Assembly (NCBI GenBank): GCA_051942245.1
Contig: JAVECL010000006.1
Location: forward strand, 1-64,000
Length of the DNA: 64,000 nucleotides
Reading direction: 5' to 3'
Source of the DNA: Trypethelium eluteriae
Lineage: Eukaryota
The notes under the pieces are model-generated. The model ran no database searches, was not told the origin of the DNA, and worked only from the letters and a program-made list of their open reading frames with translations. The first letter of the stretch is position 1. The number at the start of each line of letters is the position of its first letter. Below, in pieces: positions 267 to 32,071 of this stretch. A program made the position numbers and the translations under genes.

Positions 267-2012
267 TCAAACAGCTTCAATGTATCTTTTCACCTCCCTA
301 CATATGTCAATCAGTCATTTGTTCGAGACTTCGGTGCGGCTTTGCACTCACCAATCCGTGACGGCCTCATCCCAAAGCCTGATCTCATGTTCTCTGGTGC
401 CGACGAAATGGTCGACAAACTCATCACCGAGAACCTCTCTCGCAATGCTTTCTCTACGTCCCATTTTTGCTACCGCTTCCTTCAAGCTTTTTGCCAGCCG
501 TTCCCCTTCGTCCCCTTCACTTCCAACTTCTTGTCCTTTTCCCAACGGCGGCACCGGAATCTGTAGCTTATGTTCGATCCCCCACATACCCAGGGCCAAG
601 ACAGAACCAAGCACGAGATGAGGATTCGCATCGGCCCCAGAGACACGGATCTCGAAGCGAGTAGCTTTGGGTGAAGCTGTGGGCGGGGCAATGAGTCGAA
701 TGCTGGCCGCTCGATGTTCCAAGCCCCAAGACACTGTCACTGGCGCCCAGAAGTTCTCGACCAACCGCTTGTACGAATTGATGGTGGGCGCAACAATGGG
801 CATGATATCCGGAAGGCCCCGGAGAAGGCCTGCGAGAAAAGCTCTGCCAAGGTCGGAGAGGTACTCAAGGTCAGGATATGGGGGGTTCGGATCAGGTTCG
901 TCCCGTGCGAAGAGGTTCTTGCTAGCAGAATCTACGATTGAGAGATGCATGTGGCCGGAATTCCCAGGTAGATTTTGTCTGGGCTTGGCCATGAAACACG
1001 GCGTGATTGCATGTTTGCTCCCTATGGACTTGGCGACAAGCCTGCGTCAGACGTATCAGTGATCGAGATCGCCTTTGAAACAAGAACTAGAGAGACTGAC
1101 TTGAAGAGTGCGGCTTTATCAGCCATTTCAGTGACCTCGCCGTATTCGAGCGCCTGCAACGAGCTGGTCAGTGGCTGACATGACCATCTAGCCTTGCTCA
1201 AGTCTGTTGAAGACTGACAGCCTCGAATACACCAGGACCACTCTCCGTATGCCAACCTTCAAGCGGACATCGAAACCTCTGACACGCATCGAACATGCCG
1301 TAATAGTATTCTTGATTATGCACGGGCCGAGTAATACTGTATCCGAACATACCCTCCGTCAACGACGGTAGTGTATCGACCGGATTCTCCTTCAAGTAGG
1401 ATGCGGTAGAGGAAGAATTGCGCTCGCGGCCGTCGTTTGCAGGAGGAGCTCGGAATTGGTAAAATTCATATTCGGCTAGTGCCCACCAGCGATAGGGCGT
1501 CAGCCAGCTCCAAGGTAAACAGGAATTCCTGTAGGTGATGCTACAGTTCGTATAGCATTAAGAGAACCCATTAGAAGGTGCTCACCTCCTGCTAAAGCCC
1601 TGCATCCTTTCTCTGCCAGTCTGGCAGCCGCTCTGCCCAGTAAGCTCCTCGGGCACACGCTCAAGCTTTCACCCGTGTCCGGATCTAGAAAACTGACGAG
1701 GAAGAATGGCACGTTGTTTTCCCAAGGGATCCTTCTGAAGCTTTGCAGGTCGGGTGTCGCTATGATATCTCTGTAGCCATTCTCCTTGTTGCTGATGGCG
1801 AGCTCTTTGAAGTATGTTTGATCATGCATGTCCCAGCCAAAGATGACGCTGCAGAAGCCGAAGCCAGAGGCGGCGATTGAGAGGAATTTGCTTTTGCTCA
1901 TGAGCTTGCCACGGAGCATTCCATCAATGTCAATTCCTGCAACCTTCACCGCACTGTCATCGCTCAAAATCTGCGGCAAGGTTTCGACCGTGATATCCAG
2001 GAAGCTCGCCAT
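267..2012 (-). CDS. Glutamine synthetase-like gamma-glutamyl-amine ligase (GlnA4/PuuA/FluG-C-type), 5 exons
   Basis: Spliced from ORFs 1500-2093, 1198-1395, 348-992. Motifs DIDGMLRGK, AEYEF, HTESGPGVFE, GNSGHMHLS, NSYKRL, RFEIR. ATG at 2012; last exon EVKRYIEAV* after the GT-AG intron at ~299-350. Confidence 0.9.
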
Positions 2013-2168
2013 AGCAAAAGAGGCAATAGCCCGAGGACAAGAGCTTGTCGACGACAGTCGTGTTTGACCGTCAAGTGGGTGACAACCTCTCAAAGATAAT
2101 TGGGTAGGGGAGAATATACTCTGTTATCGAGGGTGCATCATGATAACAAGCGGCTTGACGCCCAGATA

Positions 2169-2203
2169 GCTGACCGCGCTGACCGTGCTGAACCGTGCTG
2201 ACC
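2169..2203. repeat. Four tandem copies of GCTGA(A)CC(G) in the GS/SDR bidirectional promoter
   Basis: gctgaccgc gctgaccgt gctgaaccgt gctgacc read directly. Confidence 0.7.
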
Positions 2204-2702
2204 TCCGAGCGGCAGAAAGGGAGAGGGGGAAGCAGCTGGAGGTCGTTCAATTCTCGAGCCAATCAGCGTAAAGGCTACTACAGTTTAGGTATGCACAAAG
2301 CATTTTATGCTTGAGTGGCGGGCCTCGTCCACTTCTAGTCATTCTGGAACTGTCGAGTCATCTCTAAAGATTAGGTAACTCTGACAAGTCTCGACGAGGT
2401 CTGGAGAATTGATATCTTGCAGAAAGTTTTCTAGTCTGAAATAGACTGTAGAGTAGGTAGGTAGAGTGTCGGTCGAGTCGGCCCACCGCTTCCGTTATCG
2501 CAATGTCACCATGCTCGATTGCCCAGAGAAGACCGTCAGGTCAGGCTTTTACAGCTCAGTTTGCTACCTTATCAGTCAAGAGATTGTGTCTGAGCTCGCG
2601 TGATATCTATTCCAGTCATACAGGTGTCCGCTTTCAAGCACTATCGTACCTCATCCAGTTTGCTCTCCATTAAGGGAAGCCAAGACTTCAACCTCTCCAA
2701 CC

Positions 2703-4005
2703 ATGACTACGGTCTCTCAGGGTCGACTCTCTGGCAAGAACGCCATCATCACTGGCGCTGCTGGGTAAGTATGCACGAACTCGACTTTGTCTACCTTACG
2801 GCGGCTGGGGGTTCCTTAGCTGGTAATTAATAGAATGTTACCTCAGTTTAACTGTGATTACTATGTTAGCCCATGTTCAGGCGGTGTTAACATGGACCAA
2901 CAAGGTCGTAACAGTAAAGTCGAAATAACATTGTATTAATTACCAGTTGAGGAACCCCCCCAGCCGCCGTAAGGCATACATCCAACTCTTCCGCACTTGG
3001 TTTCACTGTTAGCTGTCCACTTGTTGGTCGTAACTCGCATGAGTTTTCTCCAAATTCATTTCTTAGACGTAGCAAGCCCCTTCTCCCAGCGAAAAGAGAA
3101 GGATGGGAGTTGCTGATTGAGAATTTATGCTTTCGGAATATGGTCTGATATCATCGGTAGTGGCATCGGCCTGCAAACTACCATCCTTTTTGCGCGCGAA
3201 GGTGCTTCGGTCCTAATGGCCGACATCTCAGAAGAAGCCCTTCAGAAGGCTCTGGCAAGAGTGAAAGAAAATGTCGGCTCACACGTTGGCCGCATCGAAA
3301 TGATGAAAGTCGACGTGACTAAGGAATCGGATGTTGAGGCCGCGATTGCCCACCTGGATACGTGGCCCTCTCCCGGCATCGATATTATGTTCAACAACGC
3401 TGGGATCATGCACGCCGACGATGCTGATGCAATCGATACCCCAGAGAGGATCTGGGATCTCACGCACAACATTAACGTCAAAGGTGTGTGGTTCGGGTGT
3501 AAGCACGCAGTGCTGAGCATGAGGAAGCATGGTAAGAAGAAGGGCAGCGTAATAAACACTGCGAGTGTAGTGGCTTTGGTGGGGAGCGCCACACCTCAGC
3601 TGGCGTATACGGCGAGTAAAGGGGCAGTTCTTGCGCTGACGCGGGAGCTGGCGATTGTACATGCGAGGGAAGGGATCAGGTTTAATTCGCTCTGCCCAGC
3701 ACCATTAAAGTAAGTCAAAGCCCTTCGCCCACCGTTCAATACCTCTTGTGTGAGACTGAGGTCTATGCAGCACGCCGCTCCTTCAGGACTGGCTTGGTGA
3801 TGACAAACAGAAGCGGTTGCGCCGTGAGATCCACTTCCCAGCTGGTCGCTTCGGCGAAGCCATAGAGCAAGCTCAAGCAGTGTTGTTCCTCGCGTCAGAT
3901 GAGAGCAGCTTCGTCAATGGCACTGACTTTACCGTTGACGGTGGCATGACAAAGGCCTACGTGACGCCCGAAGGAGATCCAACACTGGCACCCAAGAATT
4001 TCTGA
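2703..4005 (+). CDS. Classical short-chain dehydrogenase/reductase, 3 exons (introns 2765-3160, 3710-3770)
   Basis: Splicing restores TGAAGGIG. Also NNAG, YTASK catalytic motif and C-terminal DGGMTKAYVTP. Confidence 0.92.
2788..2980. repeat. Long imperfect inverted repeat (foldback/MITE-like or structured RNA) inside SDR intron 1
   Basis: Arm 2788-2877 pairs with arm 2889-2980 around an 11-nt loop; outer ~47 bp almost perfect. Confidence 0.9.
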
Positions 4006-4186
4006 CGAGAGTGCTCTTCTGAGGCAGCATTTCGTAGAATGCAATAGGCTGAAGCTCCTTTCCTTTCACTACCTCGAGGTCTAACTAAATATATTATCGA
4101 ACCAATATCATACACGCTGTTGGCTGGATAGCCGGGTATTTGTCAAACGCATCTCAATCCAAAATTACAGGGCAAACCAAAATCCC

Positions 4187-7100
4187 TTAGTCAAAATCTC
4201 TTAACTCCATTTCTATGCAATTGAAGCACTCCCCTCCGATTATCACAGCGCAATCATTATGCATCGCCGCTCCGCAACTCATACAAGCCGCACACAAATC
4301 TCGCTTGATTGTTTCTCGACAAACCCTGCAATATCTCACTTTCGGTTTGTGCTCTTCGCTCTTATTTCCAGATGCCACCATCAGATTGGGACTTGCCTTT
4401 TTGATTGGGTGTAAGGGTTCATTGCTGGCCAAACCTTTAAGACTTAAATGGAGAATTTTCTCCATTTCCGCCGCCAGGTACCATTGTCCAAGACTTCGGA
4501 GGAGAGATGCACACTTCGATCGATAAATATGACAGCGCTGCGCAATATCCTGAGTGAGGACCAGAGGCGCCTCGTAGTGACCTTCATCTTCAAATCGATC
4601 TTGGTTTTTGAGGTCAACGTACAGCTGAGGACGATGACTAGTCGCATTGCCATATACCGGAAAGTCTTCACTACCCAGTGAAGTCGAAGGCGTGGAGAAA
4701 GGAGTGATAGGCTCGGATGACTCTCGCCGAAGTGATGCTAGCTTCGAGAATTCGGATAGAGAGCCACGACGGACCTCTGGCCCCTCTTTTTTCAACGAAT
4801 CGTCGGATGCGGGCACGTTGGCGGTGACGGAGAAGTCCATGCAAGCCTCAACAGAAGGCGCGTAGTCCAAGGAGTACCCAGGCAACGATGGAACAAAGGG
4901 TTGCTTTGGATGTTCCGTTCGCATCGGCTCTGCAAGAACAGTAGCGATCATGCCTAACATTAGTAGGTCACCTTGAGCCTCGTAGTAGTCGAGCAACTTG
5001 GGAACGAGCCATGCTCCACCAAAGGGATGATTGCCCCATTTGATCCGGCCTGTATATTTTGGGCGAACGACCACATCAGGCTCATCGAAAATGAGATCGA
5101 AATCACCATCGGGCAAGCCGCTACCTTTAGTGCGCTTGATCTGAACCAGGGCACGTCTCGCCACGACAAGTATATCCTCTCGGTAGAAAAGGTCGTCAGG
5201 TTTGGGGCGCTGCACGACTTGAAGAGGCACATTGTCTTCAAGTACAAATGCGAGGAGCGCCCAGACATCTGCGTGATCCCGATATTCTAGGGTAGCAGCT
5301 GCTCTGGCATTGTGCTCGCAGACCTCGACTCCAGTCCCGACTATAATGTAGTTCTCTGCCAAGGCCTTGAGCGGAGGAAGGCTGTATGTCATATCGAATC
5401 TCCGGATGCATGATTCTTTCTTAGATTGCTGTTGTTGCTTTTGTTTCAGTGCAATCCCGCTCGCAAGATGCGAACTGTCCGCAGACCGCGAGTGATGAGG
5501 TCTTGATCTACCAGATAACCACCCAGCTAAAGGCTCGCTCGAAGTGACTTCGAGATCTTCCGACGAAGAGCTACCTGATGATGAGGACGAGGCCCTCCCC
5601 ATGCCATAAACCCTACTCACTCTGCCAACGTTTGAGCGTGTGTATTTATGCAAGATCTCCGAAAACCGGGAGGATTGCTCTTCGACCGTCTCTTGTGTGG
5701 CAACAAAGGCGCAGACAAGCTGACCATCGTTGGACCAACGAGCCGTGCAAGTTGCTGCCATTGGAGCGTTCGCAGTGGCCTTTGGGATGATATCGGTGGC
5801 GCTTGCGTCCATATCTTGCAGACCACCGATGATGCCGGACTCGTCGCCTTCATCACTGGAGCTCTCCCCGTCGGCTGACGGCACGTTGGAGAAGAGCTCC
5901 GATTGATTGATACATTCTTCTTTGTTGCGTTCTCCAAGCAGGTACATCACTACGTATTCAAGACATCCGGCTGATCGCTGAGAATGAAATTCAGCAATCT
6001 CGAGGAGTTCTTGGCTCAACTTTCTGGCGGTCATCTTGTTGACGCTCGAAGTTTCATCGATAGTGAAACGAGGTGGAGCGGTCTTCGGATAATGTCGCGG
6101 GAAATTAATAGTAAGTCTCATGGGACAAACCTCAGCGTTGTCGCCCCAAGGTCCGTAGAGGAAAATCACAGCGTATCTACGGGATACATTTGCTTCTTCG
6201 AACGTGATTCTCTTGAATTGGTCACCAACTTGGGTGATCTCGTCGCCAAGATCTTCTAGATCTTCGTATTTTTTGCTATACTGATCGGATTCATTACCAT
6301 TGCATATTTCAGGAGCATTTTCGGTTGTCTCCCACTCACGAGGAGCAAGAGAGACGTTTTTCATCCACGATATTACATTGTCTTCCTTCTTTGCATTGGC
6401 TCTCGCTGGGCCTAGATATGACATTCCGCTACCAAATCCTTGTGGGTAGGGAACAATGGGAGCATGTGTAGCTTTGCGTTGTGCATCGCCCTTGATCAAG
6501 TTCGTCAGGGCAGATTCCCGATGGCCGCCAATTTGTAAGGGCTGCACAGCTTCAGAGCCCAATAGCTCACTTTCGTCTGTAGGGGTCTCTGTGAAGGTGT
6601 GATACGTGGCTCCTTGGCGGGTGAGGTTGAAATTTCGATGCACAGCCTTGCCCTTTTCGTAGCCCACAGATTGGAGGTTCTCCTTTTTGATACGATGAAG
6701 CTTGAGCAACCTATCTCTACCCCATGAGACTAACTGGAATTCACGATTGTCCACGCCATCGTCACTGATGCCTCCTCTCGAACGCCAGAGGAACTCCTTA
6801 ACGGAATCACCGTGACCTGAGAAATTGCAGACAGGTTCTATCTGAGCAAATCTGCTTTGGCCTTCATGCAACCGACGATCATACATGTGCAGATCATTGC
6901 TGTCGCGCTGTGGCATTGCCAATATACCCCAACCGAATGGAGTATGCCTAGCACGCCATACGGGAAATGGGGTGTGGATAATGCGCTCCAGATTCTGGTT
7001 GTCAGGATTAGCGATCGCATAGTCCCAAAGTTTAATAGTGCGATCCAAAGAACACGTGAGAATTGCCGTAGACCTCAAGCGGTTCCAATCGATGCCGTAG

Positions 7101-7810
7101 ATTTTTGTGTTGTGAGCATCGACAGACCACAGAGGTTCGTTACCGTGTCGACAGTCCCAAATCACCAACTTGCTGTCATGCGAAGATGCAACTATGTTGG
7201 GATCTTGCCTATTCCATTTCACTTGAGTTGCACCAGCTTGGAAATAACTAAACTTCATGCTTGGTTTTCCCGCATCCCGCAAATCCCAACACGCAATGCT
7301 GGAGTCAACAGAGCATGTTGCAAGCAAGTCAGGATGGTGAGCAGAGAAATTGATATCAGTAATTGCTCTTGAATGGCCATGCAACACGTACTCAATCGGG
7401 GCAGGGCTTTGACGCATGTTCAAGTTCCAGACAAGAGCCTTCTGATTGGTGGTACTAATAAGCCATGCATCTCTCGAGGCGAAAGGAGACCATTGGACGT
7501 CCGCCACATCACCGGTAGTGAAGTGCTTAACAAGGCGAGGTGGCGAGTACACGTTGTCAAGATCAATGATATGCAGGCCTTCATTTCTGCGAGCAGCATA
7601 TAAGTTTTAATGAGGGTGGATTGATGGGGGAAAAGCAGAGGCGTACGAGGCAAGCGCAATGTCGCGACCACACGGGGAAATAGTTGCTGAGCCAACAGGT
7701 TCATTGATCTTGACTGTAACCTCGCGCTCGAAGAATGGGCTTTCGAACGCATTCTGATATTGACCTTTGTTAAAGGTACCGGGGCCGTACTTCATGCGAG
7801 CGTGCAGCAT
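4187..7810 (-). CDS. MTC5: WD40 + RWD + C-terminal RING-like protein, SEACAT/GATOR2 subunit (Mtc5/Sea3/WDR59)
   Basis: WD repeats (LHGHSRAITDINF, TPFPVWRARHTPFG), RWD-like INFPRHYP, C-terminal Cys/His cluster. One intron at ~7587-7646; start ATG uncertain (7810 or 7795). Confidence 0.85.
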
Positions 7811-8281
7811 GATGAGTGGATCGGACGAGCCAGCCAAGCTGGTCTGCTCAATAACTCATTAACCACAGGAAGTCGATTCCGTCATGACCAAAAAGTTTAG
7901 GCCGAGTGAGTGCTTGAAGATGAGATGACGGACAGGACGAGACGGAATGTTGCAGCTTCGCCTATACACGTGATTGAGTCTCGAGCTGGAAATGACCGGG
8001 GAGCACTCACGAATGTCAACCCCACCATCGCCGAGCCTAGCTTTCCATACTGCGTCGCAACATTTATGCGACATTACGGATAGGATTTCGAGTTTCGACG
8101 AACGTGACATATTTGACTGAGTGACGACAAATCCAGGAGGACAACACATACCCCGAATTTGACCAGATTTCTCTTGAAGCTTTCCCCTTGTCCATCCATT
8201 TGAATCTTTGACGTTTGGACTTCAGGACTTGTGGGACTGTCAACCGACAGGTCTTCAAAGATATCACCCTAGAGGCCGAGG

Positions 8282-8905
8282 ATGGCGTTGCCAAAAAGGA
8301 TCGTCAAAGAGACTGAGCGCCTTATGGCTGAGCCGTATGAAGATACATACCCCGCAACCCCGTTCTCTACAAGTCTGATCGCATTTCACTAGGGTTCCAG
8401 GTATCAGTGCAGTACCTCACGAAGACAATCTCAGATACTTTGATGTTACGGTGGAAGGACCATCTCAGTCGCCGTATGAAGGTCTGCCGTCCACGCAACC
8501 ACCTTGCTCTAGCCTGGAATTGTAATAGGATGCTAATTCCTGTAGGCGGAATCTTCAAGCTCGAGCTCTTCCTTCCAGATGACTATCCAATGACGCCTCC
8601 TAAAATTCGGTTCCTAACCAAGATTTACCATCCGAATATTGATAAGTTGGGTCGGATATGTTTGGACGTTTTGAAGAGTAAGCTTGCCGGTGGAGTTCGA
8701 GCAATCACATTGCTTATCGGCTGCAGGTAACTGGTCACCAGCTCTACAAATACGCACAATATTGCTCTCAATACAGGCTCTACTCGGCGCACCGAATCCC
8801 GATGATCCCCTTGCCAACGATGTTGCCCAACATTGGAAGGAGAATCAAAATGCAGCAATTCAAACCGCAAGAGAGTGGACCCAACAATATGCGAAGCCAC
8901 AATGA
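8282..8905 (+). CDS. UBC13: Ubiquitin-conjugating enzyme E2 N, 4 exons
   Basis: [14 protein letters not shown]...[36 protein letters not shown]. Confidence 0.95.
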
Positions 8906-19186: not shown

Positions 19187-20642
19187 ATGAATGGAACGAA
19201 CTCATTGAACAACCTCCACATCGCCGTCATTGGCGCTGGTAAGAATTCATCCCATCTCACGCAGCCTTCGAATCATGGACTAACGTTGAATAGGGATGGG
19301 GGGTCTGGCCTGCGCCCTTGCTTTGAAGAAACATGGCTTTGATCGCGTCGAAGTATACGAATCTGCCTCAAACCTTGGTTTCGTTGGCGCGGGTATCCAA
19401 ATGGCACCCAATATGGCGCGGATACTCGATAGGCTGGGCTGCTGGGATGATATAGCCAAGGAGGCAACAAACATAAAATCTACAAGCATCCGGCGTACGT
19501 TTGAATTCGAGATCTCTTTGCAATGCAAGAGACTGACAAAAGCAGAGGGAAATACAAATAAAGAACTAGCGTTCGTAGAATTACTCGATATCAAGGAAAA
19601 TTACGGATACCCCCACATGGTTGGACATCGTTCATCTCTCGCAGGCAACATATACGAAGGTTGTAAGCGTGAAAAGGTGGCCTTTTTCTTTTCAACCACC
19701 GTCGAGTCCATCACCACGTTCGGACCGAAACCTTCGTTCATTGCTCAACCTCGTCATGGGAATGCCTATACCGTTGAGGCGGACATCATACTTGCCGCAG
19801 ATGGTATCAAGAGCAACTGTCGCGTATCAATGCTGAAGGAGCTGAATGCCGATGCCAATGTAGAAGATACAGGCCAGTCGGCCTATCGTATCATGCTCAA
19901 GCGAGAACAGATGGAAAATGATCCAGAACTCAAGGAGCTCATTGACAGCGATCGCGTAACCCGATGGATTGGCGAAAAGCGACACATCATCGCGTATCCC
20001 GTATCCAATAAGAACATTTATAACATCTCAACTGCGCATCCCGATACCCATTTCGCCGAGGCACCCTCCGCGACGTACACGACTCGAGGCTCCAAATCTG
20101 ACATGTTCCATACGTATTCATCCTTTGGCGAGCTGTGTCATCGGATGCTTGATCTAGTGCCGGAAGGTGAAGTTTGCGAATGGAAGCTCCGCGTACATGC
20201 TCCATTGCCGACGTGGGTCCATGGTTCTGTCGCTCTGGTTGGTGATGCCTGTCATCCAACGCTTCCTCATCTAAACCAAGGCGCCGGGCAGGCTATCGAA
20301 GATGCCGGCGTGCTTGCTGTTGTGCTATCAAAATGCCCTGATGGTAGTCCACAGAGTATCAACAAGGCTCTACAAGTCTACGAAAGGGTACGGAAAGAGC
20401 GCGCGGAACTTCTTGTGGGCCTTGCAGCTGCCTCGGGGAAGGCGTTGCAATTGGGCGAAGGTGCCGCAAAGGAGGAAAGAGATCGACAATTTGCTGCACT
20501 GAGAGCTGGCAAAGGGCCGGTACCTGATAAATGGGCTGATGGCGACACACAGAGGATGATCTTTGGTCATGACTGCATGAAGGTAGCCGAGGAGTCGTTT
20601 GACGAGATATTCAAAAGTCTAACACAAGATGCACGGCTCTAG
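19187..20642 (+). CDS. FAD-dependent monooxygenase (salicylate hydroxylase-like, class A), C-terminal ARL
   Basis: GAGMGG (split by intron at ~19239-19293), AADG, GDACHPTLPHLNQGAGQAIEDA. Confidence 0.9.
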
Positions 20643-20738
20643 ACTGATTGCACTGTCTTCGTACTTTGAGGTAGTTGTATATATTTCTATTCTTCCCATA
20701 TAAACTTGGAGATTTTCTAGCCCCTTTGGTAGCGACGA

Positions 20739-22469
20739 TCAAATGTCGGTCATGAACTCGTTCAGGAACTGGTTTCGCGAGATCCAGCTCCGAATCCGCT
20801 TTCCAAAGATCCACAAAGGTATAGTCAATGCTACGACCCCGAGAAAGCAGGAACCAAGGATACTGAACACAGCCAGGGCTCCTTGTTCAGCAAGCCAGTC
20901 ATTGACGAAGTACGTCAAGCCAAAAGTCAGAAAGTTTCGTGCGTTGATGGCCACAAATGCCTCCTCTGCCAGTTTTGGATAGGCATCAAGCACATAACCA
21001 AACACACACGTGCTTGCAAATGCAAGTGCCATATTGGCCAGACCAAAAGTCAATACTGGACCGGACCAATGTGTCTGGTAATGCACAGTCGCACCGAAGC
21101 CATAGAAGCCTACAGTGCCTAGTATGGCTACCACGGCCATCAGGACTAATCTAAACTCGGGCTCATATACACCATGGTTGCGCTGAGCAAGCCTTAGACA
21201 GATCCAGTCATTGATGGGTCCAGACATCAGTTCTCCGATGATGGTCAGAATGAACGGAGATAAGCTAATGAGGCCCGTCTGAGAAACGCTGAAGTTGTAG
21301 GGAGGCTCAACGAATATGACCCCGTTGACAACAGAGAACACAACAATCCAGGTCAAGGTTGTCCCGTAAATAAGGAAAGCCCATAGCACCGCTGGATAGA
21401 AGAACACGACGAAGGGCCTTGCAAAGACTTTCCAGTACGAAGCATGGGTATAACGACCAGTGAAAATTCTCAGACTTTGCGCATACGACATCTTCTTCCG
21501 TACCGGTTGGGACGTAGGTGATTGAGAGACTTGCTCAATCTCGACATCATCCCGCTTTTCCATCACCTCCGTGCCAGCCTCTTGTGCTTTTATGCCGTCG
21601 GGATTTTCTGCAACAGTTACGCCAGCTGCGATCTTCTTGCGATTGTACGCGGTCTCTGGCACCGCCATAACAATTCCAACGGCAAAGACACCAAAGAGGA
21701 TTGCACACACTCCGAATGTCCAGCGATATCCAAGATCCTGAATGATATATCCTGAAACGAGACTGCCGCCGGCAATTCCGCACAACAAGAACAGATTCCA
21801 GGCGGCAATTCTCGTTGCACGTTGATGCACATAATACAAATCTCCAATCGTAGCCTGTACCAACACCTCATATGGCGCCATTCCCAGCCCCCCTACGATC
21901 CGACTCCCTAAAAAGGACGAATACTCTGTCGTCACCGCACCCCAAATACTCGCAGCTAAGAGTAGAAGACTCGCCAGTACATACACTGGACGCTTCCCGT
22001 ACACCTTCGCAAACGGATTCGCAATGAAGAGCGTCGCCCCCAGGGTGAGAATCAGCCAAGCGGTGCTCTGAGAAAGCACAGAAACCGTAATGTGTAATTG
22101 AGCGCTGATAGGCACGAAGCCGGGGCTCAGCATGGGACCGTAGGCACCAACGACAGCGGCCGAGAGACCGACGAGGAAGAGGATGCCGTCCTTTTGCCAA
22201 AGGGGCCAGTTGAGCGGATCGTTCGGGTCGTCGCTGGGTTGCGGAACAAGCAAGATGTGTGCATAGCGCCCGGTGCCGTGTTTGAGGCGGGAGGTCGGGA
22301 TAGAATGGAGTTCGGGGGGGAGATCGGTCTGGTCGTTGAGGCACGCTGGTTTCGTATATTAGTTCACGAGGTGGAAAAGGACCTGTAGCTATGTCTGGAA
22401 GGACCGAATACCTGTGCCGGGAACAGCAGTGCTTTGAAGCACCTTGTCTTCTAGTATTCCAAAAGGCAT
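20739..22469 (-). CDS. Major facilitator superfamily transporter (DHA1/HOL1-like)
   Basis: PQPSDDPNDPLNWP, YGKRPVY, VPETAY, YEPEFRL; many hydrophobic helices; first exon MPFGILED plus a ~66 nt intron. Confidence 0.9.
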
Positions 22470-23450
22470 TGTAGTCCCCCGATGCGGTCTTTTGGATTGT
22501 ACGAAGCAGCACGAGGCAGGAATGAGGGTTTGCTATGTGGATCAGACATGACCTGCATGTTAACCAGCAGCTGTCGTTCTCAGCTCCTCGTCAGCTTCAA
22601 CTGCCGACACCTGCTGGGGTCGTGGGATAATTCGACATGCACCAACATGACTCGCCCAAAGTTTGTGGGGAAGCGTCCGGCGCGATCCATGATCTCCGGC
22701 CTGGCACCCTGGGGTAATTCGTTCTATTAGCCGTGTCGATCAGCGGAACGGCGCCGCGAAACCAGCACGTGGAAGCATCGACAGCGCATGGAGGGATCTT
22801 GTAACCATAGAGTGAGAGATGACTGCTTCTGCTGCTGTCGTGTCTCTTGGGCAGCCACTGATCTGTGCGCCACAGTCGACGACGATAAGGTAGAGAGAGG
22901 AAAAACAAAACGCCGAGGCTCCTGGGAGGGCTTGCCAGAGCCACATAACCTATATAAAATGTGTGTCAGATTGGATATCAGGCAAATCGAGTAGATGCCC
23001 ACCGATACACAAGTGCCAGCTGTTTTCAGAAGCGTTAGATTTTGACAGGATTTTACTCCGTTGTGCGATGCTCCGTACTCTAGAGCTAACTAGTGGTTCG
23101 TGCACATCATTTCACCACAATAGGGGCACGAGGAGCACGCGAAATTCTCTGCTCCAAGACCCTACGCTTGCTTCCCAAGTCGTTCTCACTCATCAGGTAG
23201 AGTCCCTCGGCACTGGCTATTCTCACAGCAATGTTTCAGGCACGGCTAGGAATTGCTCACTGTTTAACCGCGTAGGTGAACCACCTTTACTATCCGCAAA
23301 CGACAGGGCGCAATGTCTTTTCCCTTCTCCAAATTCAGTACGTTGTAACTACGTATCGAGATCCATCAGCAGGTCTTCGCACCAAACGAACATGAAACGT
23401 ATTTGAACGGACGGTGCAAAGCTTACTCTCTGTAGAGTACCTGATGAGAG

Positions 23451-24801
23451 CTACAGTTTCGATATTCCATTGTCCTCGTCTCTTATCTGCGCAACTGTCG
23501 TCTCGAATTGATCATGGGCGTGTTTCTCGGCATCATGATCAAGTAGCCATGCCTCCCTTTTGAGCTTAATTGACTCTGGGTTCTGCCTCACGCGGTCAAA
23601 GTCTGCTTTGTGCCACGTGTCTCTCGTCGAGACCCCTGTTTCTTGTGCTTTCTTCACCCTTTCGTATCTCATCCTCTCAAAAGCACGCAGCGCCGTTGGG
23701 ACATCATCTTTCCCGCTCAAAGCCAAACAGACGGCAATACATGTGCCATCCTCCATTGACTGAGACGCGCCTTGAATTGACGTTGGTAAGAAAGGGTGAG
23801 CTGCATCACCTATCAGGGCAATACGCTTTTGGGGGGATAGCCATGTGGGAAGAGGGTCCCGATACACGAGCTTCCAATCCACAAGCTTGGCGGCCGGAGT
23901 GGCGCGCACAATTGCATGCGTCGTAGGATCCCATCCTTCAAGAACCCGCAAGGCATCAGAAACGGAGCCGGGAGCTTGCCAGGATTCTTCAACATCGGCT
24001 TCGTCTTTGTGAGTACATACCCAGCTGAACTCCCTTCCGTTCTTTATAGAAGCGGCTAAGAAATGGATATCGGGACCGAGCCAACCTGTGTGGCTGTCAC
24101 CGTTTACGACCAGATCAGCAGTCAACGGGTTCTTCGCAAGTTCGTCGGAGTCCATCCAGGCACGGTAAACAGCGTAACTGTTCGTACAATGGCCACGTTA
24201 GTAACTTGCTGTGCTGAGAGCCCTGACGAGTCTCTTCCGCTCACCCCGAAGATTTAGGCTTGTCCTCGTACCCCAAGACAATTGTCCTGGCCTTCGACCG
24301 AACTCCGTCCGCTGCTAAAACTACATCCGCTGCCATTCTCTCTCCGTTCAGAACAACACCTGCTTCCGTGTCCGTCTCCCAATACTCCATCACCTGCTGA
24401 CCTAGACGAATCTCTATGCCTAGCTCCCTAGCATACTCGTATACGATCTCATGTATCTCTCCGCGATGGCCATTGAATTTTTTCCCGTAAGCCTGCTCTG
24501 GTTCCCAATACTGTTTTAGCAAATATTCCCCATCATACGTCTTGAAAACTATGCCATCGGAATTGTGGCATATAGGATCTAGGCGCTCTTCGATCCCAGG
24601 CCAGCTCTGAAAAATCCGACCCGAATTTGAGCTGAAAGAGATTATGTCCCCCAAGACTTTTAATTGAGGAAACGACTCGAGAACGATAGGTTTGTGGCCA
24701 TACCGCAAACACTCAATTGCGGCGGTGAGGCCTGCAAAACCTGCGCCTACGATTAAGACTCTGATCCCGGTGGGTCTAGGAGGAGGATCAAAGGTAGGCA
24801 T
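23451..24801 (-). CDS. FAD-dependent aromatic monooxygenase (MAK1/salicylate hydroxylase-like), C-terminal SKL
   Basis: GAGFAG, AADGVRS, GDAAHPFLPTSIQGASQSMEDG; one intron at ~24179-24244. Confidence 0.9.
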
Positions 24802-25259
24802 TTGTATTGAACACCACTTATTTGGATAAATATTGAATGGCAATTTCAACAGAGTATGAAGACTTAGAAACGGGGTTTACAACTCAAAGGACAAGGTCTC
24901 AAATTTTCACGCGGACCTGAACCCTTGCGATAAATGTACGGAGCACTGATTACTTGTAATCGTAGATTCACAGCATTTACCAACAGGAAAAGCGGAAAGA
25001 ATCCGCAAGATATGCCATGTTGACGATTCTGAGAGGTGGCCTGAGGAGCCCCTCACTGTATCGTACATCAGAGCTTTACCCCACGCTAGAGACATGACTT
25101 ACCAATTGTGCCATCATCGGCAGTTGGCACATCCAGCCGAAATCCTGAGCATGACTTCCCTGACAACCTCGAAAGCATAGCTCTAGAAAAGCCATTGCAG
25201 GTAAGGCATTCATTCTGTCCTTCAACTTCCTTCAGTTCGCAGACAGGACGGCTGTCAAA

Positions 25260-27011
25260 ATGCTCTTCAACGTACCCGCCGCCTTTGAGAGTTTTACAAG
25301 CCATCTCTATTCATCATGGTTCTATCTCATTATCATCGCTATCCTCACACCTCTTCTCTACACTCTGAGCTACGACCTTCTACGTGTCCTACTCATGCCA
25401 CCGGGACCATTGCCCATCCCGTTCGTGGGCAACACCTCTATGCTCCCAAAAACCTCGCCGTGGCTCACTTTTCAACACTGGTCCCAAGTTTATGGTCCCA
25501 TGTTCACCATCTGGCAAGGGCGACGCGCTACAGTCGTCGTCTCGGACCCACAGATCACGTTCGATCTATTGGAGAAACGCAGTGCCAAATTCAGTAGCCG
25601 GCCTCGCACTGTCGCTATGGGAGAGCTCCTTTGGGAAATGGGCAGTATCCTTGTCCAGCCATACGGTAAGGAATGGAGCATTCGTCGAAAACTGCTGCAC
25701 GCGGCGCTTACGCCGAAGGCGCTTCGACTGTACAAGCCGACGCAGGAGGCTGAGGCCAACCGGTTATGCATGCAACTGCTGAGACTGTCGGAAGAGCCGT
25801 CGGGGAGGACAGGTTGGGATTGGGACCGTCTGTTCGAGCGCTTTACCGCGAGTATTGTATTTTGCGTTGCCTACGGTCACCGTATCGATAGTCTCAACGC
25901 GAAAATTATCCGGCAGCGCTTCGAGTTCATGCACTTCTCTGCCTTGCTCAACGTACCTGGCGCGTATCTCGTAGAATCATTTCCTCTGCTGAAGTACGTC
26001 CCAGAGTGTCTGGCGCCATGGAAGGCGGAGATCAAACGCAACGGGAGGAGAGAGGCCAAAGCAAACATGGAATTGGTGGATCTGGTGCGGAAGGACATGC
26101 GTAGGGCCAAGGAGAAGGGTGAAGACCAAATTCCGGATAGTCTGACAAAGATGTTATTGGAGATGAAGGAAAAGGAAGATGTTCCGCTGAGTGACCGGAA
26201 TTTTGCGTTTGTTCCAGCGAGCTTATTTGGGGCAGGGAGCGATACGACTGCGAGCTCGATGTGCTCGGCTGTGCTGGCGCTTGTAACACACCCGGCTACT
26301 CTAAAGCAAGCGCAGAAAGAATTGGATGCAACAATTGGCAAAGAGCGCAGTCCCACGTTTGCAGACGAACCAAACCTACCGTACCTGAGGGCTCTCGTGA
26401 AGGAGGTACTGAGGTGGAGACCTGTGGCCGTGCTAGGAGGAACACCGCACGCGAGTACGGGGAATGATTGGTATCTCGGAAAATGGATTCCCAAGGGCAC
26501 CACGATCCTAGGAAACAATTGGGCGATTAATTTGAACGAGGAGTACTATCCTGAACCGCATCTCTTTGAGCCAAGGAGATTTCTTGCGCTTGAGATGAAC
26601 AAGCTATCCAAATTCGAGGCTGCACCAGGCTACTTACCGGTGACCGACGGAACGGCAGGCTTTACAATTACCCCGCCGGAGCTCACTGGAAAGGCCCATC
26701 CTTCTCCAAAGGGGCACTCTTCCTTTGGTTGGGGCCGAAGGATATGTCCGGGAGCTGATCTTGCGTCCAATACACTGTTCATCGTGCTTGCTAAGCTAAT
26801 TTGGGCATTTGATTTCTTGCCTGCAGACGGGAGACAGCCGGAGGACTACGACATCTTTGCGTATACTCAAGGCTTCAACATCCGACCACAGCGTTTCGAG
26901 TGCAAGATACGATTGAGAGATGGAGACCGAAAGGTAGTTCTAAATCGGGATCTGCAAGATGCTGAAGCATGGTTGGAAAGATTCAGCGCTTTCGGAGAAC
27001 AAGCAGGCTAA
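25260..27011 (+). CDS. Cytochrome P450, intronless
   Basis: N-terminal TM anchor, PPGP, AGSDTT, EVLR (ExxR), FEPRRF, heme motif FGWGRRICPG. Confidence 0.95.
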   Translation: MLFNVPAAFESFTSHLYSSWFYLIIIAILTPLLYTLSYDLLRVLLMPPGPLPIPFVGNTSMLPKTSPWLTFQHWSQVYGPMFTIWQGRRATVVVSDPQITFDLLEKRSAKFSSRPRTVAMGELLWEMGSILVQPYGKEWSIRRKLLHAALTPKALRLYKPTQEAEANRLCMQLLRLSEEPSGRTGWDWDRLFERFTASIVFCVAYGHRIDSLNAKIIRQRFEFMHFSALLNVPGAYLVESFPLLKYVPECLAPWKAEIKRNGRREAKANMELVDLVRKDMRRAKEKGEDQIPDSLTKMLLEMKEKEDVPLSDRNFAFVPASLFGAGSDTTASSMCSAVLALVTHPATLKQAQKELDATIGKERSPTFADEPNLPYLRALVKEVLRWRPVAVLGGTPHASTGNDWYLGKWIPKGTTILGNNWAINLNEEYYPEPHLFEPRRFLALEMNKLSKFEAAPGYLPVTDGTAGFTITPPELTGKAHPSPKGHSSFGWGRRICPGADLASNTLFIVLAKLIWAFDFLPADGRQPEDYDIFAYTQGFNIRPQRFECKIRLRDGDRKVVLNRDLQDAEAWLERFSAFGEQAG

Positions 27012-27126
27012 GATATACTCTTCCCCACTTTCTGCCTCAGGGCGAATGCAAGTGACGCCGCGGCGTCAGCACTACTTTTGCTTCATGCCATCCACCTTCC
27101 TGCCTACGATACGAATGACCGGCCCG

Positions 27127-28963
27127 CTAACGCACGGCATTCTCGTGTCTTATAATCTTGTCGATCTCTGCCTTGCGAGAACCTTGGCCTCGGTAGCTCC
27201 GACGGCCACGTATAAGCCAGTCCGCACAAATAATGAGGCAGACTATCCCATAAACTGCCGGCACGTAGTTCATTGTGCTGGGCTTCACGGGCATTGAATC
27301 TACGAATAACGGTCAGTTCTTGGTAGTGGTTGATAGGAGAAGTTGACACCCGAGCTGAGGGTGAGTAGGCTACTCACAGGGAAAGCTATACATCACGAGC
27401 GTAAAGACAGTCCATAGTAGTAGTACTATGTTACAGAGGAGACCAATCTGACCAAGCCAGAACGGCCCATGTTTGATATTGTTGCGGCCCTTGATAAGGA
27501 GGCAGATCACAGGAATCGAGTATGAGACGTAGAGGAGGACGATGCAGGCAGCTATCACGCTGTGTTTCCATCTCAAGTCAGTGGATTATCAGAGTACCAT
27601 ACTCCTATCCAGGGATGACTTAATCAAGATTGGATTGAGGGCGACTTACCTGTTCAAGGCTGTGTACGAGCCTAGGTACAAACATCCCACTGCCGCAACC
27701 AGCAGACAGCTTACAATGTGCGCCGAAAGTGGTACATTGAGACCAGGTGTGACTCTGCTTAGCCACTGATGACCGGGAATGCCTTTGTCTCTGGCGAAGC
27801 TCCAGCATAATCGGTTCTGCCATGTGTGACTTGCGACAAGACAACCCAGTCCTGTTGCAATGATCAAGGCTTCTAGAATGACGGCTCCGGCAGTGCTTGA
27901 TACTGCATTCTTGAATAGTTGTAAGATTGGGACCCCCGTGCTCGAACCTACTAGGTCGTTGAAGTCTCCAACAATGCTAAAGAACATGCTTATACCGTAG
28001 AACCAGCTTGTCACAAATCCAACGGCAACCGTTCCCATAATAGCAATTGGAACCATGCGTTCCGGCTGGTGAACTTCCTCGGCCAGATGAGTCGCACAAT
28101 CCAAGCATGCAAATGCCCAGTTGGTATTGACGAGTCCGACAATGAATGCAACACCGTTCGACGACCAACCGGTGTTGTTGATGAAAGTTGCGAAGACGAA
28201 TCGAGCATGTTGATGAGTAGGGGCAGCTGCAGGGATGGTGATGAGGATTACAAGGAATGAGACAAGGGAGCAGTATAGAGTTGCATGACCGATGAAAGGC
28301 AGGATGCTTCCATAGGTATTGAAGAAGAAACAGAAGACATTGGCCATTTGGTAAGCAACAAAGACGTGCCAGGGCTTAACAGTGCTAAGCAACATAAGGT
28401 CAGCTTGGTTCATCATGATTTCGAAGTTTCAAGAGTTGTACAGGGAAACCTCACAAATCAGGATGGCCCAACTGATAGCATCCCACAAGTGCTGCCCCCG
28501 TTGCTAATGCCACGCTCGCGCTCGTGAAAATGCTTCCAGCCCATGCAAACCACCCCGTCAGATAGCTTGCGAAATTGGCGTATTTCCTAGGAGCTAGTTC
28601 ATTCGTCCAAAAGTACTGTCCACCAGCATTTGGGAAGGCGCTTGCCAGCTCACTTAGGCTCACGCCCACACAGATGCTGATCAGGGCAATGAGAATGATG
28701 CCGTAGATAATAAGCAAAGGGCCGCCGGAGCTGATACCAGTCACTAGCGCCGCTGAAATGGCATACCACGAGTTGGTGAGGGAGAAACCAACTCCGAGGA
28801 CTGACCAGACACCGTAGTTGCGCTTCATGTCTTGCGTGTAGCCCATTTCAGCGAGCTTGAGGGCATCGACATCGAGTGATTTGGTATCGAAGTTGTCGTG
28901 GTCCGAGGAATCCAACCCGGATGCTATAGCAGGTGGATTCTTTTCTACGTCAATTGTCTCCAT
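27127..28963 (-). CDS. APC-family amino acid/choline permease (Hnm1-like), 4 exons
   Basis: LSELASAFPNAGGQYFW, FINNTGW, DCATHLAEE, RLCWSFARD; last exon MNYV..DWLIRGRRSY ending at 27127. Confidence 0.88.
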
Positions 28964-30408
28964 TATGGTCCAAACGTAGGGACAGCTTCGAAGAGTCGTA
29001 ACGTTGAGGGCACTCTGGTACCTCTAATTATGAAGAAGAGTGGAGAATGGAGACGAATGATGCGCTTGAGCTAAGGTCAAAAGTGGGCCAGATTTGCGGT
29101 CGGCCTGTGCTACAAGGCGAGGTACAGTTGAAGCTTCCGTAAATGCCAGGGAAACGGTAATCCAAGCTTGGCAAGAAGGTGGAGCAGTGAGCACGAAGCA
29201 CTAGCGGTGAATTACCAACAAGCTCATCGATGCTCCGTACCTACATGTCTCTTTGGGTGGAAACCTGTCACTTTACTAGTAGCTTCCTCATGCCATCGGT
29301 GCCATCATAAGGTTCCGGCTTATCTGCCTCGAACACCCGATTGGGCAAATTCAAGGAAAAGATGACTCAATGGGGGTAAGGCGTGGACGGAGGTGGGTGT
29401 CGTCTGTTACACAAGCGATAGCACCCCGCTATCTCTGCCTGCAAGATTCCCTGCCACGCACGAGGGGATAGACGCAGATAAGGTGGGCAGGCACCTGCTC
29501 TTCTGATGCAGGTCCCTAGCATTTTTGAAGTGGTGGAGTGAGTAAGGTGTGAAGTACGAAAAGTGGTACTTCCATGCACCCTAACCCATCCTAACTCATC
29601 CTTCTTTTCGTCGTCTGTATGGCGGCTACTTGCCCCTACATGAAGCTCTGCGCATCCGCGATGCGGTCTTCACATCATATGACGAACCCGATCTCAGAGC
29701 TATCATGGAGTACTCTGTACAGCGTTGAGAATGTCTTCAACAGACTGCTGGACTAGGTATGCGATAACACTCAGTGGGCAAGTGCTTAGATTCTTGACGG
29801 TCGGGGGATCCGGAGGGAACCGAATCACAATTCTCTTACGTCATTCCTGAGAAGCGCCAAACGTCGCTGCCAACCAATCACAATCGTACCATATCCGTCA
29901 GTGCCGCCCCTACTTAGGTACTTGCCTTGCCTGCTCTACTCTACCGTACCGTAACCTAATACCCCACCATTCCACAGCACTTACTGAAGGCAAGTCACTA
30001 CAACAATGCTTCGCTTTACTCGTTGCTCAATTCTGCACACTCTCCATATGATTGCTTAAAGTATGGGATGCCGGAACTGAACCTTCATTGTCATTGATAG
30101 ATACCTAGTTGTTCTTCAATCCGGAGTCTGACCTTACAGGTGGTCATCATGCTATTTCCCTGGACTGTGTCACGGAGCCAATTCATTCTTGCCGCCCGGA
30201 ATACCGAGAATGTTGTGGACCACCGTAGTTTGGTCGATCTTGGTGGGGTACACGGATTGATCCTGTCGCGCTCAAGGGAAAAGTTGGTTATTTAAGTGCA
30301 CCCAGCCCTTGATAGGGCCTCTGACTTTCAGGTGAAGATCCTTCCACATCCCATCTTCGAGCGATACTCCTGCATGAGCGCCAAATATCGTTTCAAAGAT
30401 TGACCAGC

Positions 30409-31419
30409 ATGACAACCAGAATTCCCGTCTCTTTTGCTTGCGCGGGCTACGATCGCATGCAGGCCCTCTTGACTGGCGAGGTGGTACCATCTGGCATTGA
30501 TCTAAATTTCATCACAAGCAATCATCCACGTGATACATTTGATCGAATGCAAGGGGGCCACGAGTTCGACTGCAGTGAGATGTCATCCAGCGAATACATC
30601 TGCCATTATGCTGCCGGTGAACGCTTTTTCACCGCTTTGCCTGTCTTTCCTAGTAGAGTGTTCCGCCATGGCTTCATTGCCGTTAATTCAGACCTTGTAA
30701 AGAATCCAAAGGATCTAGAAGGCCAAAAGGTCGGAGTACAGTTGTACACCATGACCGCCGCGGTATGGATCCGTGGATTGCTGGCGCAGGAAGGCGTAGA
30801 CCTCTCTAAAATCGAATGGCTTGAGGGCGCAATGGAAGGCCCTGGGGCACATGGCAAACCCAAACCGACAGTACTCCCGCAATCAAAGCAAGTCAAGATC
30901 AGCCAGAACTTGTCGCAGACCAAATCTCTCTCTGATCTCCTTGCCGACGGCGAGATTGCGGCAACCATCGGGGCCGATCTTCCCACTAACATTGGCAAAG
31001 CTCCTAACGTTAAGCGTCTCTTTCCAAACTTCAAAGAAGCAGAAAAGAGATATTATAGAGACCATGGGCTATTTCCAATCATGCATCTGATCTGCATCAA
31101 GCGCTCTCTCGTTCAACAACATCCATGGATTCCGAGCTCTCTTTACGCCGCCTTCGCAAAGTCCAAGAACCTCGCGCTTCAGCGAATGAAATTTCTCGGG
31201 GCATTGCGTTACATGCTACCCTGGCTGCCGGCTGAGCTCGACGAGATCGAGGAAGTCTTCAAGGACACCGATGGTGATCCGTGGCCATACGGCGTAGAAG
31301 CGAATCGGAAGACGTTGGAGACCCTCGTACAATTCTTGTGGGAACAGGGAATGATCGAGCGTCAGCCAAGCATTCAAGAGCTATTTGAAACCGTGAGACT
31401 CCCGCAGTGGGATATTTGA
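30409..31419 (+). CDS. 4,5-dihydroxyphthalate decarboxylase-like protein (periplasmic-binding-protein fold), intronless
   Basis: YDR..AL..GEV..GIDL, FDCSEMSSS, LPVFPSRVFRH, DLEGQKVGV..YTMTAAVWIRG, FPIMH, PWPYGVEANR resemble the bacterial Pht5/OphC family. Confidence 0.8.
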   Translation: MTTRIPVSFACAGYDRMQALLTGEVVPSGIDLNFITSNHPRDTFDRMQGGHEFDCSEMSSSEYICHYAAGERFFTALPVFPSRVFRHGFIAVNSDLVKNPKDLEGQKVGVQLYTMTAAVWIRGLLAQEGVDLSKIEWLEGAMEGPGAHGKPKPTVLPQSKQVKISQNLSQTKSLSDLLADGEIAATIGADLPTNIGKAPNVKRLFPNFKEAEKRYYRDHGLFPIMHLICIKRSLVQQHPWIPSSLYAAFAKSKNLALQRMKFLGALRYMLPWLPAELDEIEEVFKDTDGDPWPYGVEANRKTLETLVQFLWEQGMIERQPSIQELFETVRLPQWDI

Positions 31420-32071
31420 AGGGAAAGGTCCTTGATCTTGGACGAATGTTAGTCTCGGAAGGATGTAGCATGTGTGAAGCTCAGCCGTCGTCGTGACAGC
31501 AGGACTTAGTTGCTACTGAGAAAGCGTGCTTCTGTCAGAAAATCGAGTCCTCTTTACCGGTCGTAGCACAAACACCTGTTGAATTGGTCAAGGAACTGAC
31601 TTGGGCGCTGGCTTGTACACATACCCAGCGACGAGTACCATGTTTGCAGACCAGTGGCCCCTAGATACACGAGCGAATTAGGAAGACTTTGAACTTGACC
31701 CATAATGAGAGTGTGACTGTGATGTGCAAAGCATTATCAGCAGTATACTTTCCATCTCCCTTATACGGGTGCTTTATGACACTATTTGTGCTGTCACTTG
31801 TTCTTGAGAAGTCTTTTAGTTCAGTGAATTGTAAAAGAATTGTATATTGTGAATTTCTCGGTCAAACGGCGAAGTATCGACCAGCGGCTCTACAGATCTT
31901 GAGATTGTCCAAATGCAAAGCACACATTGATTACTCAAGAAATGAATCTCTTCATCGGAGGTCCAATGCCAGTGCAGGCATACCTGTAGGCATGGGCTAT
32001 CATCGCGGTGCATACCTAGTCGTAATTTGACTCCGAAGCTCTTCCAATCGCATCATACTAGCTTTGCACTC

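Follow-up and report, generated by a model that had tools for sequence, protein, structure and literature searches.

A conserved divergent gene pair in filamentous fungi that may gamma-glutamylate an amino alcohol, most likely ethanolamine, and then oxidize it

We analyzed a 64,000-nucleotide stretch of DNA from Trypethelium eluteriae (contig JAVECL010000006.1 of assembly GCA_051942245.1, positions 1 to 64,000; hereafter, the window). Near its start, a gene for a protein that resembles glutamine synthetase (GS) lies at 267..2012 on the minus strand, and a gene for a classical short-chain dehydrogenase/reductase (SDR) lies at 2703..4005 on the plus strand. The two genes diverge from a shared promoter region at 2013..2702. 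We propose, with moderate confidence, that they form a co-regulated and nitrogen-controlled catabolic module in which the first enzyme attaches a gamma-glutamyl group to an amino alcohol (most likely ethanolamine) and the second oxidizes the product. The pair is kept together across fungi, its promoter is rich in GATA sites, and both genes have bacterial relatives in operons of this kind. Comparative genomics therefore supports the central claim of the original prediction, namely that the pair performs the first two steps (glutamylation, then oxidation) of a fungal route.

At the expense of ATP, the GS-like enzyme would couple glutamate, through its gamma-carboxyl group, to the amine of a small amino alcohol; with ethanolamine, the product would be gamma-glutamylethanolamide. 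The SDR is probably NAD-dependent and would oxidize the hydroxyl group of gamma-glutamylethanolamide to an aldehyde. (Its Asp42, in the motif MADI at the end of strand beta-2, fits NAD over NADP, which suits an oxidative role.) Glycine and glutamate (or 5-oxoproline) would finally be released by an unlinked aldehyde dehydrogenase (ALDH) together with a gamma-glutamyl hydrolase or cyclotransferase. We infer the reactions and their chemistry, the substrate, the order of the steps, the control by AreA, and the later steps.

Both gene models follow GT-AG splicing rules and agree with public proteins. The exons of the predicted ligase gene are at 2012-1586, 1475-1219, 1153-1101, 1041-352, and 297-267, with the stop codon at 269-267. 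The spliced product of 485 amino acids is identical, letter for letter, to public protein P0250, which is annotated in Viridothelium virens. Exon 4 contains a match to Pfam family PF00120 (E = 6.9e-57). The SDR gene has exons at 2703-2764, 3161-3709, and 3771-4005 and encodes 281 amino acids that are identical to public protein P0254. It matches the Pfam families adh_short and adh_short_C2 (E = 4.2e-39 for the latter). All three signatures of a classical SDR are present (TGxxxGxG, NNAG, and YxxxK), with TGAAGGIG at residue 17, NNAG at 99, and YTASK at 170. The C-terminal motif DGG..AYVTP, which had been noticed by eye, is found as VDGG at 259 and AYVTP at 266.

Intron 1 of the SDR gene (2765..3160, 396 nt) holds a hairpin-like inverted-repeat element of ~190 bp at 2788-2980. 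Its outer arms are 24 nt long with 92% complementarity, and its inner arms are 71 nt long with 77% complementarity. This element is present in a single copy within the window and looks like a miniature transposon that inserted there. The public model of the SDR from V. virens (P0121, 242 amino acids) starts at Met40 and lacks exon 1, with the nucleotide-binding glycine motif (GxxxGxG). Perhaps the enlarged intron 1 is the reason that this model skips exon 1.

The active site of the ligase combines a conserved catalytic core with altered residues around the ammonium site. Eleven residues that bind metal, ATP, or glutamate are retained: E144, E146, E220, E227, H276, H278, R338, R356, R361, E376, and R378, which correspond to E129, E131, E212, E220, H269, H271, R321, R339, R344, E357, and R359 of E. 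coli GlnA. All 11 are intact in each of the 12 fungal rows of our alignment. In place of the flap residue Glu327 of E. coli GlnA, the ligase has Trp344, on which MAFFT and hhalign agree; this residue lies in the motif FWAP (residues 343-346), just as the original prediction had it. Also, Tyr179 of GlnA aligns with Phe186. Both substitutions are found in 10 of the 12 fungal rows, and among the ligases from the bacterial operons described below, 22/22 have the tryptophan and 20/22 have the phenylalanine. According to PMC6478659, a tryptophan replaces the catalytic glutamate of the flap in both FluG and the gamma-glutamyl ligase PA5508. The FDGSS motif of canonical GS is absent from the ligase sequence, as claimed. 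FCSVIFGWD (residues 53-61) may be its counterpart, as was proposed by eye. Around the loop with Asp50 and Ser53 of GlnA, the MAFFT alignment is gappy, and the hhalign alignment of the family to GlnA begins only at residue 84, which gives no residue-by-residue match for the loop.

The ligase does not belong to any of the named GS families. It scores below the cut-offs of TIGR00653 for type I GS (208.3 bits vs. 429.15), TIGR03105 (192 vs. 470), and NF045547 for PuuA (165.2 vs. 650). Its sequence identity amounts to 27.7% with E. coli GlnA, 26.6% with PuuA, 29.8% with a GlnA4-type ligase from Streptomyces, and 34.5% with an annotated IpuC. The nearest solved structures, 11zs (158 bits) and 5dm3 (156 bits), are too distant to assign a substrate. 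We rejected the idea that the ligase is FluG because it lacks an amidohydrolase domain: it is a stand-alone protein of 485 amino acids with PF00120 only. Furthermore, no protein of FluG's length is found among the best 150 representatives related to the ligase. We also rejected orthology to GlnA4 (the SDR-linked ligases are 29–33% identical and form a separate clade) and to PuuA (below the cut-off of NF045547, and again a separate clade). The protein is probably an ATP-dependent gamma-glutamyl-amine ligase. Public fungal records label it as glutamine synthetase, which is almost certainly wrong. The score against TIGR00653, the tryptophan in the flap, and the position of GlnA as the most distant row of our tree all agree with the earlier view that the protein stands apart from canonical GS.

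Close homologs of the ligase are widespread in filamentous ascomycetes. In a search with exon 4, the best 120 of 4,833 matches are 72–90% identical, and where these are named, they are from Dothideomycetes, Lecanoromycetes, Eurotiomycetes, and Sordariomycetes. Twelve full-length orthologs from across these classes are 68–76% identical. More distant members are found in Glomeromycota (55% identity), Kickxellomycotina (47%), and the yeast Trichomonascus (45%), followed by bacteria at ~35–45%.

The pairing with the SDR is conserved as well, as the original prediction required. Among nine assemblies in which both proteins could be traced, the accession or locus-tag numbers of the ligase and the SDR are consecutive in six (V. 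virens, two Bathelium, Trypethelium eluteriae, Elsinoe ampelina, and Blastomyces percursus) and two or three apart in another two. We also scanned metagenome contigs and obtained 80 fungal ligase loci in 68 distinct groups; in 31 distinct loci, the sequence upstream of the ligase is 2.5 kb or longer. An ortholog of the SDR (56–89% identity) is divergent and within 2.5 kb in 23 of these 31 loci, is in tandem with the ligase in two, and lies 3.3 or 6.9 kb upstream in another two. In other words, the pair is adjacent in 25/31 loci and no more than 7 kb apart in 27/31. When we clustered the open reading frames (ORFs) from the 30 locus groups that span 6 kb or more, every cluster that is present in nine or more groups overlaps the coordinates of the ligase or the SDR. 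No other neighboring family (such as Abhydrolase_2, LigB, or dienelactone hydrolase) occurs in more than six of the 30 groups.

The shared promoter had been described as ~690 bp with several GATA sites. It is 690 bp from ATG to ATG and contains seven matches to HGATAR, which start at 2094, 2124, 2141, 2164, 2495, 2569, and 2641, along with CCAAT boxes at 2099 and 2259. Across the 64 kb, segments of 690 bp have 1.76 HGATAR sites on average, and 0.16% of them reach seven. Similarly, shuffled sequences have a mean of 2.03 sites, and 0.15% of them reach seven. We then combined 29 distinct divergent spacers from fungi (36.4 kb). These contain 186 HGATAR sites, as compared to 105.6 ± 10.3 in composition-matched shuffles (maximum 140, n = 500), and this count ranks highest when set among ten control motifs with permuted cores (57 to 145). 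The density of HGATAR is also higher in the spacer than in the remaining locus in all 21 fungal loci where the other flanking sequence amounts to 2 kb or more, a control that contains coding DNA. The enrichment is compatible with nitrogen control of the AreA type and is no proof of it.

To find bacterial relatives of the ligase, we scanned prokaryotes (one genome per species) with a five-row alignment as the query. This returned 80 loci whose ligases are 34.6–44.9% identical to the fungal protein. Pfam annotation of the neighboring genes revealed a recurrent operon that encodes an amino-acid permease, the ligase, an iron alcohol dehydrogenase (Fe-ADH), a peptidase of family C26, and an ALDH. 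The entire set is present in two loci (L044 and L036), and parts of it are present in L054, L013, L035, L019, and L008. For the 52 bacterial loci that have 5 kb or more on each side, we counted the genes within 6 kb: Fe-ADH was found in 40, ALDH in 36, both of these in 34, a C26 hydrolase in 17, and a permease in 11.

Some of these operons are marked for ethanolamine. The permeases of L044 and L036, directly upstream of the ligase, pass the cut-off of the ethanolamine permease model TIGR00908 (381.75) with 427.1 and 413.6 bits. The two adjoining ligases, which are from Bacteroidota, are 41.7% and 44.9% identical to the fungal protein, and they are the closest Bacteroidota ligases that we tested. 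In L019, a gene similar to choline/ethanolamine kinases is beside the ligase. According to PMC10132767, the same operon architecture serves gamma-glutamyl ethanolamine catabolism in Chromohalobacter salexigens, Agrobacterium, and Phaeobacter MED193. We liken these published systems to the scanned bacterial loci by architecture and not by sequence orthology. For instance, the structure 5dm3, which we take to be the C. salexigens enzyme, has only 207 bits against L013.

Homologs of the ligase are also found on plasmids (11 matches). All four of the plasmids that we opened encode an ALDH and an amidotransferase or C26 protein, and the alcohol-oxidizing partner varies: it is an Fe-ADH in Legionella, a GMC oxidoreductase in Rhizobium, and an SDR together with a cytochrome P450 in the ipuC cluster, while none was seen in Burkholderia. 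In the plasmid from Rhizobium leguminosarum (positions 1558-8738 of the locus), the ligase, the ALDH, and the C26 hydrolase are accompanied by the GMC-family oxidoreductase, which suggests that this is a third interchangeable module for alcohol oxidation. Depending on the lineage, the alcohol would then be oxidized by one of three enzyme types: Fe-ADH, GMC oxidoreductase, or SDR.

We placed the fungal ligases among these relatives with two trees. A FastTree analysis had 122 rows: 12 from fungi, 32 from the bacterial loci, 76 unnamed representatives (425–500 amino acids), and PuuA and GlnA from E. coli. We also ran a short IQ-TREE search with a mixture model on 54 rows, which were taken from the 122 with four SDR-linked ligases added. 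Support values are limited to the Shimodaira-Hasegawa-like approximate likelihood ratio test (SH-aLRT). Long branches occur in several rows, and a single GlnA sequence serves as the root. In the IQ-TREE analysis, the fungal ligases form a clade (SH-aLRT 100) that lies inside bacterial clades of 28 rows (98) and 39 rows (99). The 28-row clade contains Bacteroidota and Betaproteobacteria. FastTree likewise nests the fungal clade among ligases from the operons. The four SDR-linked ligases, which are of the GlnA4 type, form their own clade with one unnamed representative (99), PuuA falls in a separate clade (98), and no row is more distant than the outgroup, E. coli GlnA.

The SDR has its own set of relatives in gamma-glutamyl operons. 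Its best hit among solved structures is 4wec (213.6 bits; the next has 154.9 bits), which has the same AYVTP C-terminus. We searched for homologs with tblastn in plasmids and in replicons that are filed as plasmids; the chromosomes of Actinomycetota lay outside this search. There were seven matches at E ≤ 1e-40, with 45–56% identity, and in all seven a GS-like gene is beside the SDR gene on the same strand, in clusters of the GlnA4 type. An ALDH is nearby in six of the seven, a C26 hydrolase in five, and a permease in four (three from tblastn and one that is annotated in the Streptomyces record). In Thermomicrobium roseum, the order is GS-like gene, SDR, and a permease with 436 bits on TIGR00908.

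The best-matching curated model for the SDR is NF004713 (PRK06057), with a cut-off of 404 bits. The SDRs from clusters in Streptomyces and Arthrobacter pass it with 507 and 496 bits. The fungal SDR (represented by P0253, the ortholog from Bathelium) is below the cut-off at 269.7 bits, yet NF004713 is its best model by 59 bits (the next has 211). Exon 2 of the SDR in the window, on its own, has 154.1 bits, and NF004713 is again the best model. A search of two genomes and 14 control genomes with NF004713 gave no match above the cut-off. The clusters in Streptomyces viridifaciens and Arthrobacter have the architecture that is described for SCO1610-1615 of S. coelicolor, and PMC6529630 proposes that the SDR of that cluster, SCO1611, oxidizes gamma-glutamylethanolamide.

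By homology, then, the nearest prokaryotic relatives of each gene are found, independently, inside apparent operons for the glutamylation and oxidation of amino alcohols, and ethanolamine is the only substrate that is marked by a curated model. The fungal pair appears to be a mosaic of a ligase lineage that partners with Fe-ADH and a dehydrogenase lineage that partners with GlnA4. This amends the kinship to the GlnA4 cluster that was originally predicted: it stands for the SDR, and it fails for the ligase, which is 29.8% identical to the GlnA4-type enzyme and lies in a separate clade.

The fungal pair can be set beside several known systems. Compared with the Fe-ADH-type operons (L044, L036, L054, and L013), the fungal ligase is in a common clade, with up to 44.9% identity, shares the tryptophan flap and the phenylalanine at position 179, and follows the same logic of a ligase with an alcohol-oxidizing enzyme. 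In contrast, an SDR takes the place of the Fe-ADH in the fungi; no ALDH, hydrolase, or permease is linked; and the genes are divergent and intron-bearing, with a GATA-rich promoter. The GlnA4 cluster of S. coelicolor (SCO1610-1615) has a GS-like ligase and an SDR that is predicted to oxidize gamma-glutamylethanolamide (PMC6529630). The SDRs of GlnA4-type clusters resemble the fungal one in identity (46–55%), in the C-terminal AYVTP, and in having NF004713 as the best model, and the difference lies in the ligase. (The cluster from S. viridifaciens stood in for S. coelicolor in these comparisons.) The Puu pathway of E. coli is similar to our proposal in its sequence of steps: PuuA, PuuB, PuuC, and PuuD gamma-glutamylate, oxidize, oxidize, and hydrolyze. 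PuuA likewise lacks the flap glutamate, in place of which it has a tyrosine. The pathway differs in that the first oxidant is a flavin oxidase that acts on an amine, with no alcohol dehydrogenase.

Two other systems resemble the pair in part. FluG from Aspergillus nidulans is, like the ligase, a fungal GS-like protein with a tryptophan in the flap, and no GS activity is reported for it (PMC6478659). Unlike the ligase, it is fused to an N-terminal amidohydrolase, and its GS-like region spans residues ~387 to 865. The IpuC cluster of Paenarthrobacter aurescens (plasmid pTC1) also encodes a GS-like ligase, which is accompanied by an SDR, an ALDH, and an amidotransferase. It differs in having a P450, a ferredoxin, and a reductase that hydroxylate the isopropylamide, and the identity between its SDR and the fungal one is only 30.2%. 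Finally, a knockout of MoGln3 from Magnaporthe (MGG_02538) had no defect in the tests of spore production, appressorium formation, or virulence that are described in PMC8229676. That paper mentions a beta-grasp domain only; orthology to the ligase is no more than possible, and we did not use this result.

Several observations weigh against a module for ethanolamine catabolism. First, the linkage has exceptions: in Elsinoe batatas, the ligase and the SDR are separated by 68 locus tags, and in 4/31 fungal loci no SDR was found within the DNA of the contig. Second, the genes for the later steps are usually not nearby. A tblastn search of the 64-kb window (1e-6) returned no homologs of ALDH, Fe-ADH, C26 hydrolase, or a permease of the ethanolamine type, and an ALDH adjoins the pair in only four fungal loci. 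The ALDH genes in these three-gene clusters are at 5634-7099 of L126, 5863-7375 of L133, 3950-5008 of L160, and 31-975 of L132. Third, the two bacterial parallels do not overlap. The bacterial relatives of the ligase are partnered by Fe-ADH, and SDR matches were found in only 3/80 of their loci, at 27–30% identity, so bacteria offer no direct template for the fungal pairing. Conversely, the ligases beside the relatives of the SDR are only distantly similar to the fungal ligase (29–33% identity) and belong to another clade. Fourth, the context of the bacterial ligases is not uniform, as 9 of the 52 loci have none of the four marker genes. In Bacteroidota of the Mucilaginibacter type, the ligase is flanked by a gene similar to the gamma-glutamyl cyclotransferase GGACT and by a HAD hydrolase. 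These loci (8365-12577 of L067, 8277-12549 of L079, and 9262-12849 of L070) encode GGACT, a protein of ~345 amino acids without a Pfam family, and a HAD phosphatase, and two of them (L067 and L079) have an additional short GS-like gene (336 amino acids). Judging from these neighbors, this still appears to be gamma-glutamyl-amine chemistry, in a different and undescribed setting. Fifth, the flanks that served as the control for the density of HGATAR contain coding DNA. Sixth, the ligase has 34.5% identity to IpuC, an enzyme that acts on isopropylamine. The specificity of the ligase cannot be read from similarity, and this includes similarity at 35–45% identity.

The last point leads to the alternative that a different amine is the substrate, which we consider unlikely while taking it seriously. 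Alaninol, 1-amino-2-propanol, 3-aminopropanol, serinol, or a polyamine-derived alcohol would be glutamylated, and the SDR would then oxidize the product. Classical SDRs act more often on secondary alcohols and ketones, and a secondary alcohol would be oxidized to a ketone, so no ALDH would be required. Most fungal pairs indeed lack an adjoining ALDH. The varied contexts of the members of the ligase clade would also fit, as would the cluster of the annotated gamma-glutamylisopropylamide synthetase IpuC, with its SDR, ALDH, amidotransferase, and P450. On the other hand, the only substrate-specific markers beside the relatives of both genes are the TIGR00908 ethanolamine permeases and the choline/ethanolamine-kinase-like gene in L019, and the family of the SDR (NF004713) is that of the GlnA4-type clusters.

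It is quite improbable that the SDR is functionally unrelated to a gamma-glutamyl-amine ligase and that the pair is kept solely by its bidirectional promoter. Common promoters can hold gene order without a joint function, and the bacterial relatives of the ligase have no such SDR beside them (the three matches are weak). But all seven of the closest plasmid relatives of the SDR adjoin GS-like genes in gamma-glutamyl operons, the linkage persists where the genes are in tandem (two loci) or several kb apart (two loci), and no further neighbor is conserved.

Very improbable, in our view, is a role outside nitrogen catabolism, in which the pair would make or modify a gamma-glutamylated signal or protective metabolite. 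The precedent is FluG, with its tryptophan flap, whose developmental role is via an unknown gamma-glutamyl compound (PMC6478659). The strong conservation of the ligase, with 68–76% full-length identity across classes, would suit such a role as well. Against this, the ligase has neither the length nor the amidohydrolase domain of FluG, the best 150 representatives include no protein of that length, and the GATA-rich promoters and the catabolic operons of the relatives point to nutrient use. That the ligase is a second true GS, as its public name and its intact catalytic core might suggest, is hardly credible given the tryptophan flap, the phenylalanine for Tyr179, the missing FDGSS motif, the 208.3 bits on TIGR00653 where 429.15 are needed, and the 27.7% identity to the outgroup GlnA.

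If the pair does act on ethanolamine as we propose, then a broader picture may be drawn, which we offer tentatively and would not bet on. Filamentous ascomycetes, and perhaps fungi more widely, might assimilate ethanolamine, a head group of phospholipids, via gamma-glutamyl intermediates under control of the AreA type, and they would do so with a chimeric pair: a ligase of Bacteroidota/Proteobacteria lineage and a dehydrogenase from the lineage of the actinobacterial GlnA4 clusters. This could even be the main route for ethanolamine nitrogen in fungi. We write "perhaps fungi more widely" because the ligase is also found in Glomeromycota, Kickxellomycotina, and Saccharomycotina.

The fungal route had been thought to be uncharacterized, and our literature searches, whose coverage leaves out most subscription journals, agree: they returned no report of a gamma-glutamyl ethanolamine route in fungi, and the papers within that coverage that name glutamylethanolamide or its variants are bacterial or archaeal throughout. 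If our proposal is correct, it would give a function to one of the most conserved "GS" paralogs of Pezizomycotina and a eukaryotic example of a pathway that is known only from bacteria. It would also be the first catabolic pathway for gamma-glutamyl amines described in a eukaryote, and it would open to genetics the question of how nitrogen is scavenged from membrane lipids by molds, by lichen fungi, and by pathogens (Blastomyces, for example).

The rest of the window contains other genes of note. Directly downstream of the SDR gene, and unrelated to the pair, a single ORF at 4190-7606 (minus strand) encodes a protein of 1,139 amino acids that has WD40 repeats at its N-terminus and a weak match to the RWD domain; presumably it is similar to proteins of the WDR59/Mtc5 type. 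A run of genes at 19290-35699 is typical of a small oxidative or secondary-metabolite cluster. It encodes a FAD monooxygenase (19290-20639), a transporter of the major facilitator superfamily (20742-22358), a second FAD-binding protein (24244-24876), a cytochrome P450 (25164-27008), an AA_permease_2 transporter (27649-29023), and a fungal-specific transcription factor (33687-35699). The AA_permease_2 gene, 24 kb from the pair, is an unrelated one. An uninterrupted ORF of 1,554 amino acids at 39652-44313 (plus strand) has no Pfam match at E ≤ 1e-4. Near the end of the window, a gene of the citrate synthase family (56854-57894, minus strand) is followed by two on the plus strand: one of the isocitrate lyase family, whose three exon pieces span 58681-60795, and one for an AMP-binding acyl-CoA synthetase (62101-63967). 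Together, these genes (56854-63967) look like a methylcitrate/propionate cluster.

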